This document shows, in pieces, positions 16,156-19,027 of a DNA stretch of 64,000 nt. The stretch's first letter is position 1. Every line of letters begins with the position of its first letter. The stretch is from Alphaproteobacteria bacterium (GTDB lineage Bacteria > Pseudomonadota > Alphaproteobacteria > Rs-D84): NCBI GenBank assembly GCA_009783145.1, contig WRHR01000002.1, positions 34,834 to 98,833 of the forward strand, read 5' to 3'. Both the position numbers and the translations under genes were made by a program. The notes beneath the pieces are model-generated. The model had not been told where the DNA came from and made no database searches. It worked only from the letters and a program-made list of their open reading frames with translations.

Positions 16156-19027
16156 CCGATTAGTACGGCTTAGCTGAACCCCTCGCAGGGCTTACACTTG
16201 CCGCCTATCAACGTTGTAGTCTACAACAGGATTAATGGGGATATCTTATCTTGCGACCAGCTTCCCGCTTAGATGCATTCAGCGGTTATCTGTTCCGAAC
16301 ATAGCTAGCCTGCGGTGCCACGGGCGTGACAACAGGTACACCAGGGGTTCGTTCGACCCGGTCCTCTCGTACTAAGGTCAAGTTCGCTCAAATATCCAAC
16401 GCCCACAGTAGATAGGGACCTAACTGTCTCACGACGTTATTAACCCAACTCACGTACCGCTTTAAATGGCGAACAGCCATACCCTTGGGACCTGCTCCAG
16501 CCCCAGGATGCGATGAGTCGACATCGAGGTGCCAAACACTTCCGTCGCTATGGACGCTTGGGAAGCATCAGCCTGTTATCCCTAGAGTAGCTTTTATCCG
16601 TTCGCGATGGCCCTTCCATGCGGAGCCACCGGGTTTCTAAGACCGACTTTCGTCTCTGCTCGGAGTGTCCTCCTCGCAGTCAGGCTTGCTTTTGCCTTTG
16701 CACTCACCGGCTGATTTCCGACCAGCCTGAGCAAACCTTCGCGCGCCTCCGGTACGATTTGGGAGGCGACCACCCCAGTCAAACTGCCCATCACGCACTG
16801 TCCCCCGCCCTGTTTCAAGAACGCGGGTTAGACATTAAAACACACCAGGGTGGTATTTCACCAACCGCTCCACGCGAACCGAAATCCGCGCTTCAAAGCG
16901 TCCCACCTATCCTACGCAAATGTGTCATAATGCCAGTACGAAACTGCAGTAAAGCTTCATAGGGTCTTTCCGTCTAGCTGCGGGTACCCGGCATTTTCAC
17001 CGAGAATTCAATTTCGCTGAGTCTATGTTGGAGACAGTGGGGAGATCGTTACGCCATTCATGCGGGTCAGAACTTACCTGACAAGGAATTTCGCTACCTT
17101 AGGACCGTTAGAGTTACGGCCGCCGTTTACTGGGGCTTCACATCAGAGCTTGCACTCCTCAGCTTAACCTTCCAGCACTGGGCAGGCGTCACACCCTATA
17201 CATCATCTTATACGATTTAGCAGAGTGCTGTGTTTTAAGTAAACAGTCGCCCCCCCCTGGTTTGTGTCACCTCATTGAAGTTGCCTTAAAAGAGGTCATC
17301 CTTCTACCGAAGATACGGATGCATTTTGCCTAGTTCCTTCAACATAGTTCTCTCAACCGCCTTAGTCTACTCGACTCGAGCACCTGTGTTGGTTCTGGGT
17401 ACGATTCATATGTGGGTGCTATTTCCTGGAACCCCTTCACTGCAATGCCAATCCATTAAGGCAAAACAATTTACGGAATTCGTCACATCCCACGAGTCAC
17501 GGAATATTAACCGTGTTCCCATCGGCTACGCCTTTCGGCCTGACCTTAGGGGTCGACTCACCCTACCCTGATTAACATTGGATAGGAACCCTTGCTCTTA
17601 CGGCGTCAAGGTTTCTCACCTTGATTAGCTGCTACTCATGCCAACATTCGCGCTTCTGATACCTCCACCGTGGCTCGCGCCTTCGGCTTCGCAGGCTTAC
17701 AGAATGCTCCGCTACCGCGCGTCTTACGACGCACCCGCATCTTCGGTAAATGATTTAAGCCCCGTTACATTTTCGTTGCATAAAGTCTTGATTAGACCAG
17801 TGAGCTATTACGCTTTCTTTAAAGGATGGCTGCTTCCAAGCCAACCTCCTGGTTGTTTTGGACTCTACACTCACTTTCCCACTTAATCATTATTTGGGGA
17901 CCTTAGATGGCGGTCTGGGCTGTTGCCCTCTCGTCCACCGACCTTAGCACCGATGGACTGTTTCCCTGGCTATAATTTGTTGGTATTCAGAGTTTGATAT
18001 GGTTTGGTAAGATTTTACTCCCCCTAGCCATTTCAGTGCTTTACCCCCAACAACGAACACCAGAGACACTACCTCTATAGTTTTCGCGGAGAACCAGCTA
18101 TAACGGGGTTCGATTGGCTTTTCACCCCTAGACACAGGTCATCGCCCGATGTTGCCATATCGGTGCGTTCGGCCCTCCAGTTGCTGTTACACAACCTTCA
18201 GCCTGCCCATACCTAGATCACCCCGCTTCGGGTCTACGACTACATACTAAATTCGCCCTATTCAGACTCGGTTTCCCTACGCTTACGCCTAACGGCTTAG
18301 GCTTGCATGCAATCGTAACTCGTTGGCTCATTATACAAAAGGTACGCCATCACACGGCAATTTAATTCGGCTTTGCCGAATTAAATTGCACGGATAAGTT
18401 ATAAGTTATAAGTTATAAAAATAATTCGCGCATGCACAAACTATTATAACTTATCCTTTATAACTTATAACTGAATTTAATTCGCTACGCGAATTAAATT
18501 GCCGTGCTCTGACAGCTTGTAGGTATTCAGTTTCAGTGTCTATTTCACTCCCCCTTCGGGGTTCTTTTCACCTTTCCCTCACGGTACTTGTTCACTATCG
18601 GTCAATCAGGAGTATTTAGCCTTGGAGGAAGGTCCCCCCATATTCAGACGGGATTTCACGTGTCCCGCCCTACTCTTGGACCAGACTACAGGATTTCGCA
18701 TACGGGGCTATCACCTATTATCGCCGCGCTTTCCATCGCGTTTTGCTATCCTATAATTCGGCCACTGGGCTGATCCCCGTTCGCTCGCCACTACTAGGGG
18801 AATCTCGGTTGATTTCTTTTCCTGCGGATACTGAGATGTTTCACTTCTCCGCGTTTGCTCTGTACACCTATGTATTCAGTGCACAGTACGGCATAAAGCC
18901 GTGGGTTTCCCCATTCGGACATTTCCGGGTCAAAGCATATTGACGGCTCGCCGGAACTTATCGCAGTCTTTCACGTCCTTCATCGCCTCTGATTGCCAAG
19001 GCATCCACTAAACACCCTTTGTTACTT
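16156..19027 (-). rRNA. rrl: 23S ribosomal RNA (with about 150-nt IVS-like insertion)
   Basis: 5' end ...GGTGTTTAGTGGATGCCTTGGCAATCAGAGGCGATGAAGGACGTG; 3' end GTACTAATCGGATGATCGAC; conserved cores throughout. Confidence 0.85.
18345..18500 (-). other. Intervening-sequence-like insertion in 23S helix-25 region containing a (gttataa)x3 / (ttataac)x3 heptamer-array hairpin
   Basis: Two flanking hairpins (caatttaattcg...cgaattaaattg) enclose gttataagttataagttataa...ttataacttatcctttataacttataac about 530-680 nt from the 23S 5' end. Confidence 0.65.

Follow-up and report, generated by a model that had tools for sequence, protein, structure and literature searches.

The 23S ribosomal RNA (rRNA) gene in a 64-kb stretch of contig WRHR01000002.1, from the Alphaproteobacteria bacterium assembly GCA_009783145.1 (positions 34,834 to 98,833; the whole stretch is called the window below), carries a genuine insertion of the intervening sequence (IVS) type in helix 25. 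The insertion shares its design, palindromic modules and a hairpin with inverted arrays of 7-nucleotide (nt) units, with insertions in the 16S rRNA gene and with many hairpins elsewhere in this genome, and genes of the family PF05635 (the '23S-IVS protein') carry arms of the same kind. In our view the insertion is probably an IVS without an open reading frame (ORF) that is cut by RNase III, and probably a product of a heptamer-array process linked to PF05635 genes. IVSs have been known since 1990, and the insertion itself is of this known kind; the broad heptamer-array context is the more interesting result.

The helix-25 insertion and its fold

One rRNA operon, on the minus strand, was found in the window with Rfam (Table 1). 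In the alignment of its 23S gene to the Rfam large-subunit (LSU) model, position 583 of the model, on the 5′ strand of the helix-25 stem, is the last one before a long unaligned stretch. Its boundaries were set by comparison with relatives. Scanning species-representative genomes with the 23S flank TACAAGCTGTCAGAGC gave 120 loci, 50 of which are 23S genes with both helix-25 flanks recognisable, and 32 of these come from close relatives whose 23S is 91–95% identical to that of the window (gut and rumen metagenome-assembled genomes (MAGs) named Candidatus Enterousia, 'uncultured proteobacterium', 'Rickettsiales bacterium' or 'Alphaproteobacteria bacterium'). All 32 read GAGC-CGGTTTTCCG-GTGATGG, whereas the window reads GAGC-ACGG...CCGT-GTGATGG, so that 152 nt stand where the relatives have a 10-nt tip. 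A sequence-only reading of this DNA had assigned an insertion to helix 25, about 530–680 nt from the 23S 5′ end, and this agrees with 23S positions 527–678 and with the point at which the LSU alignment breaks off; the interval it gave, 18345–18500, marks a real insertion but misses each end by 5–9 nt. IVSs usually occupy one of three sites, and helix 25 is among them (PMC4990558, PMC2672173).

The insertion consists of a 28–31-nt palindrome, a heptamer hairpin with (GUUAUAA)n and (UUAUAAC)n arms, and the palindrome again. Read as RNA, its 5′ part is composed of ACGG, the palindromic module P′ (CAAUUUAAUUCG CGUA GCGAAUUAAAUU), C and AGUUAUAAGUUAUAA AGGAUAAGUUAUAA, and is followed by a 25-nt apical part and by a 3′ part of UUAUAACUUAUAACUUAUAACUUAUCC, GUG, the second P′ (CAAUUUAAUUCGG CAAA GCCGAAUUAAAUUG) and CCGU. 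Tandem Repeats Finder (TRF) detects (ATAAGTT)x3.6 with 100% matches at 18394–18418 and the inverted array (TTATAAC)x4.1, with period 7 and 72% matches, at 18444–18472. The palindrome arms CAATTTAATTCG/CGAATTAAATTG lie at four places (18358, 18377, 18490 and, with one mismatch, 18473). Both the terminal hairpins and the (gttataa)/(ttataac) arrays of the sequence-only reading are thereby confirmed. By itself the number of 12-nt palindrome arms is only marginal (4 against 1.2 expected, with 2 of 100 shuffles reaching 4), and we therefore base the case on how often the heptamer occurs, on the fold and on what relatives have at this site. The double heptamer GTTATAAGTTATAA occurs three times against an expectation of 0.03, which none of 100 shuffles reaches.

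The insertion folds at −74 kcal/mol (z-score −9.5), and none of 200 shuffles folds as well. The most favourable structure is one rod with 65 base pairs (bp) at −69.8 kcal/mol. The rod joins the two P′ modules to each other, has helices of 18, 11, 11, 10 and 10 bp and gains 12 kcal/mol over a three-hairpin alternative with two local P′ hairpins. The terminal helix is perfect (17/18 bp; inverted repeat I3 and fold). There is no ATG-initiated ORF within the insertion, and the sole overlaps are two TTG-start ORFs of 20 and 24 amino acids (aa) that enter from the flanking 23S, in agreement with the earlier description of the insertion as ORF-less. It contains no PF05635 coding sequence and no ORF of endonuclease size, group I and group II intron families are absent from the Rfam scans, and the insertion matches no Rfam family. 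Two sub-threshold Rfam matches at a permissive E-value, one to a microRNA and one to a Listeria small RNA, were dismissed as chance matches of an AT-rich hairpin.

In a neighbour-joining tree built from the 3′ 1.6 kb of 23S, the window stands beside L028, then L020 and L108, and this small group lies apart from the Enterousia/rumen clade. Within it helix 25 has four states, with no insertion in L028, 34 nt in L020, 152 nt in the window and 278 nt in L108. The L020 insertion is a lone copy of P′ (ACGG CAAUUUAAUUUG CGUG GCAAAUUAAAUUG CCGU) and differs from the copies of the window by one compensatory change of a C-G to a U-A pair. In L108 (a related MAG, JAITJD010000009.1, positions 5048–5340), the site is occupied by an unrelated 278-nt hairpin (−97.6 kcal/mol) without heptamer arrays. 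Different insertions at one site in close relatives match the sporadic occurrence that is typical of IVSs (PMC4990558).

Inverted heptamer arrays in the operon and across the window

With 1697 nt, the 16S gene of this operon is longer than its 1533-nt model. At helix 6, 168 nt are extra to the small-subunit (SSU) model, and the site measures 192 nt here versus 17–39 nt in 27 relatives. This insertion opens with a palindrome (AUCAAUUUUUU GCAUUGC AAAAAAUUGAU) and closes with the palindrome again (AUCAAUUUUUC GUCA GAAAAAUUGAU), and the core between them combines arrays of the AGAGUAA and UUACUCU types with two small GC hairpins; it folds at −89.8 kcal/mol (z-score −11.5) and makes the 16S V1 region about 170 nt longer. 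It is 100% identical in contigs of two other samples, and since these are independent assemblies, it does not stem from an assembly error. The helix-6 core is related to a hairpin at 2534–2633 and closely matches an intergenic hairpin at about 38840–38905 (alignment), the latter being direct evidence that an rRNA insertion belongs to a dispersed repeat family. Furthermore, the tip of 16S helix 10 measures 45 nt, versus 13 nt in 20 relatives, and holds a lone 30-nt palindrome of the 16S type, which parallels the lone P′ in the 23S of L020.

A further element of this operon is the heptamer hairpin in the spacer just upstream of 23S. Its loop retains the host sequence AGCTCATTCAAGTTATTTT, which is present at the matching place in the sister L028, and the corresponding spacer site of L020 holds a hairpin made of another heptamer. 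L020 carries heptamer hairpins of other units (5977–6046 and 2804–2922) at this site of the spacer, immediately downstream of its 23S gene and around a transfer RNA (tRNA) of the spacer. L028 (about 3700–3800) has no heptamer hairpins in the spacer region compared (window 19045–19180).

The arrays extend well beyond the operon. Across the 64 kb, TRF detects 43 arrays with a period of 7 or 8, as opposed to 0–2 in 20 dinucleotide shuffles, and there are 16 inverted array pairs, defined as arms matching within 2 mismatches per unit, as opposed to no pairs in the same number of shuffles. The arms of the 23S insertion are counted among the 16 pairs. At least 10 unrelated heptamers are in use within the window, and 14 of the 16 hairpins occupy the gap between two co-directional genes almost exactly. 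With those of 16S helix 6 and the spacer included, the window holds at least 17 heptamer-array hairpins, and the insertion is not the isolated oddity that it had seemed. L020 is equally array-rich, with 9 arrays in 8 kb that include hairpins flanking its 23S on both sides, and no arrays were found in L028 and most Enterousia-type loci.

Two of the hairpins lie inside essential genes. The arms of the ksgA hairpin code for two variable segments, KSEEWRVKSADD and HQLHSSLSTLHS, between which the conserved motif NLPYNIGTELL lies, and the length change relative to homologues is only about 4 residues per arm. In murG, too, the arms code for variable segments, here around the conserved VYTGLPVR, and the length is little changed. 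The ksgA homologue P0161, from another MAG, has the peptides SSII..HPSS and MTDDG at the same two places, and these are the peptides encoded by the GGATGAT-type arrays of the murG gene of the window. Block insertion was considered as the origin of all hairpins and was rejected as a general rule, since native sequence of the host lies within the hairpins of the spacer, ksgA and murG.

Further arrays and loops were noted along the window. Perfect (AAAGAAT)4-5 arrays at 31023–31051, 36934–36968 and 57754–57784 read (ATTCTTT)n on the minus strand, where they encode the hydrophobic core of the signal peptide (ILYSLFF...) of ORFs starting at 31062, 36976 (Peptidase_S11) and 57814. A conserved loop core, GCAACAATA...(A)TGTCCATTATAATGGACAA(T/C)G, is present at about 150–200, 23470–23490, 25655–25690 and 30445–30480; it holds an 18-bp palindrome and is found inside hairpins with AATTAGC or AAGTAGG arms and also alone. 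As one loop core occurs under different heptamer arms, arms and loop cores combine modularly. The hairpins at 49455–49595 and 53320–53470, with AAGTAGG/AGGTAGG arms, have loops that are reverse-complement homologues, and are oppositely oriented copies of one element.

PF05635 genes and period-7 arrays across bacteria

The window contains a PF05635 gene in a cassette between dnaX and a pilin-like gene. Residues 3–107 of the ORF at 2632–3456 (minus strand) match PF05635 with an E-value of 4.7e-31 (Pfam), and the gene also matches TIGR02436 (E 4.9e-34) and PDB 2rld (E 6.5e-36). The array at its 5′ end (3460–3490) and that at its 3′ end (3086–3118) score as an inverted pair with 1 mismatch per unit. 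The ORF reads in frame through the (CCAACCT)n array into the next gene, which has a weak prepilin motif. The sequence-only reading took it for a four-helix-bundle gene fused to a pilin; the first half of this description holds, while for the pilin half only a sub-threshold N_methyl match was obtained (E 0.0047, 16.9 bits versus a cut-off of 21.2). Free-standing PF05635 homologues are 117–125 aa long, and the fusion therefore results from read-through that the array causes.

The association of PF05635 with arrays extends across bacteria. We compared 22 PF05635 loci, namely that of the window and 21 more, 7 on metagenome contigs and 14 on plasmids (Monoglobus, Bernardetia, Chondrinema, Treponema, Chlorohelix and nine cyanobacteria), which sample six phyla: Proteobacteria, Firmicutes, Bacteroidota, Spirochaetota, Chloroflexota and Cyanobacteria (the loci other than the window carry the labels L137, L138, L141, L145 and L148–L165). 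Tandem arrays are present on both flanks in 18 of the 22 loci and on one flank in the other 4, and 38 of the 40 flanking arrays have a period of 7, 14, 21 or 28. Against position-shifted controls from the same loci (n = 940; 95th percentile of the period-7 score, 4; 99th percentile of the inverted score, 11.3), 17 of 19 scored loci stand out in both period-7 score and inverted flank complementarity. The heptamer sequence changes from one cassette to the next. Plasmid matches to the PF05635 protein are dominated by Nostoc and relatives.

The cassettes lie between operon genes, often in defence operons (restriction-modification, cas1-cas2, helicase-methylase). Those of L141, L145, L148, L154 and L156–L161 are in defence operons and oriented with the operon, and the sites include gaps between subunits of type I and type III restriction-modification systems, the gap between cas2 and cas1, a place upstream of cas1 within a cas cluster, and gaps between helicase and methylase or DUF1156 and HEPN genes. 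Of the two near-identical gut-metagenome contigs L137 and L138 (about 1040–1460), one has a PF05635 cassette with arrays between mutL and miaB, and the other has a different, GC-rich sequence of about 190 nt in its place. This difference is not a clean insertion, as the entire intergenic region is exchanged. ORF-less hairpins as deletion derivatives of PF05635 cassettes were considered and set aside, their loops being without ORF remnant; a small TGTCC...GGACA hairpin common to some loops and to the 3′ region of the L137 cassette is only suggestive. Our literature search found no description of a link between PF05635 and heptamer arrays, and the family has been described as functionally uncharacterized (PMC11270868).

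Table 1. Coordinates of the rRNA genes, insertions, heptamer hairpins and PF05635 cassette in the window
Feature	Position	Strand	Evidence
23S rRNA gene, host of the insertion	16139..19031	-	Rfam LSU_rRNA_bacteria, 2599 bits, model positions 1-2925
Helix-25 insertion, putative IVS, 152 nt, 23S positions 527-678	18354..18505	-	relatives and LSU model
5′ palindromic module P′ (CAAUUUAAUUCG-CGUA-GCGAAUUAAAUU)	18473..18501	-	inverted repeat I9; alone in L020 helix 25
5′ heptamer arm, (GUUAUAA)n in RNA sense, one degenerate unit	18444..18472	-	TRF; inverted repeats I1/I4
Apical part of the rod, partly paired, 4-nt loop	18419..18443	-	fold predictions
3′ heptamer arm, (UUAUAAC)x3.6 in RNA sense, perfect	18394..18418	-	TRF, 100% matches; pattern count
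3′ palindromic module P′ (GCAAUUUAAUUCGGC-AAA-GCCGAAUUAAAUUGC)	18357..18389	-	inverted repeat I5, 15-nt arms, 100% complementary
Spacer heptamer hairpin just upstream of 23S, (ACGCGAG)n/(CGCGUCU)n arms	19057..19166	-	TRF and fold
16S rRNA gene	19890..21586	-	Rfam SSU_rRNA_bacteria, 1519 bits
16S helix-6 insertion, plan as in the 23S insertion	21337..21511	-	SSU model, fold, relatives, other assemblies
Lone palindromic module in 16S helix 10 (AAUCAAUUGUUUGUAACAGAAAAAUUGAUU)	21211..21240	-	tip length versus relatives; stem matches helix-6 terminal palindromes
Intergenic hairpin, AGAGTAG-type arms, flanked by GCGCGCTTCGCGCGC	38855..38905	.	alignment A1; fold −60.5 kcal/mol
PF05635 / TIGR02436 'four helix bundle' (23S_rRNA_IVP, S23p) coding part	3119..3456	-	Pfam, TIGR02436, PDB 2rld
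Heptamer array (AGGTTGG)x4.7, 3′ end of the PF05635 ORF	3086..3118	-	TRF, 100% matches
Inverted heptamer array (TACCTCC)x4.4, 5′ end of the PF05635 ORF	3460..3490	-	TRF
Heptamer hairpin inside ksgA (rsmA)	33380..33511	.	arms are variable segments; loop is conserved NLPYNIGTELL
Heptamer hairpin inside murG, (GGATGAT)n/(TCCATCA)n arms flanking conserved VYTGLPVR	52750..52864	.	
tRNA-Ile and tRNA-Ala	19604-19761	-	Rfam
5S rRNA	15880-15994	-	Rfam

Processing, origin and relation to known systems

RNase III cuts IVS stems (PMC4990558, PMC2672173), and helix-25 IVS carriers have no intact 23S rRNA on gels (PMC2801512). By analogy, RNase III excision of the putative IVS described here is likely. The insertion, built from two repeatedly used modules (the AT-rich palindrome, present twice, and the inverted-heptamer-array hairpin), would be transcribed inside pre-23S rRNA, and the transcript would zip into a rod of about 65 bp with 18 perfect base pairs in its basal helix, and RNase III would cut this rod as it does other IVS stems. 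The 23S would then work in two parts, one of about 0.53 kb and one of about 2.2 kb, that stay together within the ribosome. If the rod is cut, 23S would be fragmented, and 16S probably too, with the helix-6 insertion behaving likewise. As to its origin, the insertion is probably the local product of a genome-wide process that makes and maintains inverted heptamer arrays, and in bacteria at large this process would have a link in cis with PF05635 genes. The rRNA insertions would then be ORF-less relatives of PF05635 cassettes, the element type presumably behind the ORF-bearing IVSs of Coxiella and Leptospira, and the ORF-less rRNA insertions and the PF05635 cassettes could be products of one system.

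Several observations weigh against this reading. Long rRNA insertions are sometimes retained in mature rRNA, and RNase III is not encoded in the window, so that its presence in the genome is assumed. No other GTTATAA-type hairpins or P′ palindromes occur in the 64-kb window; without a second copy of the 23S type there, membership of a dispersed family is direct for the 16S insertion only and would extend to the 23S insertion by analogy. A metagenome scan recovered the 23S insertion in no other assembly; the three contigs matched by its 5′ junction (CAGAGCACGGCAATTTAATT) are chance matches, none of them 23S. Furthermore, the link to PF05635 is an association, and the loops of the ORF-less hairpins hold no remnant of an ORF. 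The insertion could instead be a retained expansion segment, an uncleaved, solvent-exposed extension of helix 25 in mature 23S. Helix 25 is variable, surface-exposed and tolerant of length (17–278 nt among relatives), nothing in the sequence proves cleavage, and the internal loops of the rod, one every 10–18 bp, could work against RNase III. However, a perfect 18-bp basal helix stacked on more helices is an RNase III substrate in every IVS studied (PMC4990558, PMC2672173), and Campylobacter carriers of helix-25 IVSs are without intact 23S rRNA (PMC2801512), which makes retention somewhat unlikely. It is very improbable that the segment is an assembly artefact or belongs to a dead operon, that is, chimeric sequence or part of a pseudogene and not working 23S. 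Same-strain short-read contigs, reached via neighbouring proteins, do end inside the operon, at 16486 and 20509, short of the 23S insertion, which they leave uncovered, and short-read assemblies break at heptamer arrays (contig ends at 36940 and 9176). Yet 16S and 23S match the full Rfam models end to end, the insertion sits exactly at the helix tip with the closing base pairs preserved, its palindrome was encountered independently in helix 25 of the MAG L020, and the sister insertion in 16S recurs unchanged in the two other assemblies.

A different origin, which is possible if doubtful, is that a mobile element resembling a miniature inverted-repeat transposable element (MITE) transposed into the ribosomal DNA, with the palindrome as target-site duplication or terminal repeat and with processing being incidental. 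The palindrome-core-palindrome plan of the 23S insertion would fit such an event, as would the single palindrome of L020, which resembles an empty or excised site, the same plan in 16S helix 6 together with the lone palindrome of helix 10, the recurrence of the 16S core at 38840, and the reverse-complement loops of the hairpins at 49455 and 53320. On the other hand, no transposase was found associated with the insertion, and elsewhere the heptamer arms stand on both sides of host sequence that has been kept (in the spacer loop and at the ksgA and murG motifs) instead of having come in as one block. In addition, orthologous sites hold different heptamers (the L020 spacer and the ksgA of P0161), and since the module is palindromic, direct and inverted duplication are indistinguishable. 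A MITE-like origin is compatible with, and not exclusive of, the heptamer-array IVS that we favour. Going beyond the rRNA insertion, we tentatively suggest that inverted 7-nt arrays are the cis signature of a widespread, undescribed class of small cassettes whose ORF-bearing form encodes PF05635. One such system might yield rRNA IVSs, the ORF-less hairpins found here in rRNA, spacers, gaps between genes and coding regions, and the STRR (short, tandemly repeated and repetitive) sequences of cyanobacteria, with PF05635, a relative of Avd, the accessory protein of diversity-generating retroelements (DGRs), writing, spreading or maintaining the arrays or using their RNA stem.

The insertion resembles the helix-25 IVSs of Salmonella, Helicobacter, Proteus/Providencia and Campylobacter sputorum in its site, in being ORF-less, in its length (about 100–150 nt in those IVSs), in complementary termini that form a long stem and in its sporadic occurrence among close relatives (PMC4990558, PMC2801512, PMC2672173). 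Unlike them, the putative IVS has a modular stem with a duplicated palindrome and tandem-heptamer arms, is accompanied by insertions of the same plan in 16S and the spacer, and occurs in an uncultured gut-type alphaproteobacterium. The IVS of Coxiella burnetii has two to three GACAGAT copies upstream of its S23p ORF, varying in number between strains, and a 28-bp terminal stem, and the 5′ cut of RNase III falls at the first repeat (PMC4990558). The helix-45 IVSs of Coxiella and Leptospira encode S23p/PF05635, and the PF05635 ORF of the window is likewise flanked by arrays, whereas the 23S insertion here is ORF-less and lies in helix 25, with the PF05635 cassette located outside rRNA.

STRR heptamers of heterocystous cyanobacteria were reportedly described by Vioque in 1997 (cited in PMC2858038), including copies inside the RNase P RNA gene. 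As in STRR, tandem 7-nt units are here dispersed in the genome and also lie within a helix of a structural RNA, and the PF05635 cassettes of Nostoc and relatives carry heptamer arrays; the present arrays differ in phylum, in using many heptamers, in forming inverted, hairpin-forming pairs and in residing in rRNA instead of RNase P RNA. IVSs in 16S are rare, examples being those of Caedibacter, Helicobacter canis and Campylobacter. The helix-6 insertion, like these, is a long hairpin in a variable 16S helix, but differs in that other loci of its genome have the same design and belong to the same repeat family. The GGGAATC array pairs of Xanthomonas (PMC4692102) are convergent, intergenic, capable of forming stem-loops and variable in length between close relatives, as are the arrays here. 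In Xanthomonas one G-rich unit is discussed as a quadruplex former, whereas at least ten unrelated units are used here, including in rRNA and coding genes. Heptamer-rich genomes in general are reportedly treated in Mrazek 2007 (as cited in PMC4679880) and share these features of the arrays.

The window joins rRNA IVSs, dispersed heptamer repeats and PF05635 genes under one signature, the inverted heptamer array. If this is true, it would provide a searchable definition of the element and a testable role for PF05635 in binding or processing heptamer stems, and it would account for the abundance of heptamer repeats in some genomes and not in others. In practice, the insertions break short-read assemblies and would make the rRNA look 'degraded' when RNA quality is checked. 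The same-strain contigs L002, L004, L132, L126 and L127 end at or beside heptamer arrays (window 36940, 9176 and 21924), and these repeats therefore fragment assemblies. Broken assemblies of this kind may also be the reason that contigs with PF05635 homologues are in many cases about 1 kb long.

Other regions of the window were noted in passing. At 13287–15192, an AAA_21/AAA_15 ATPase (AbiEii-like) and a RloB-family partner adjoin the 5S end of the operon, and the segment 12001–16000 has a low G+C content (0.40 versus about 0.50). Two large ORFs of 986 and 713 aa at 6330–11356 are without Pfam match and lie in a segment of higher G+C content (0.56); for the first of them, gene calls differ between same-strain contigs (961 versus 968 aa) on identical DNA.

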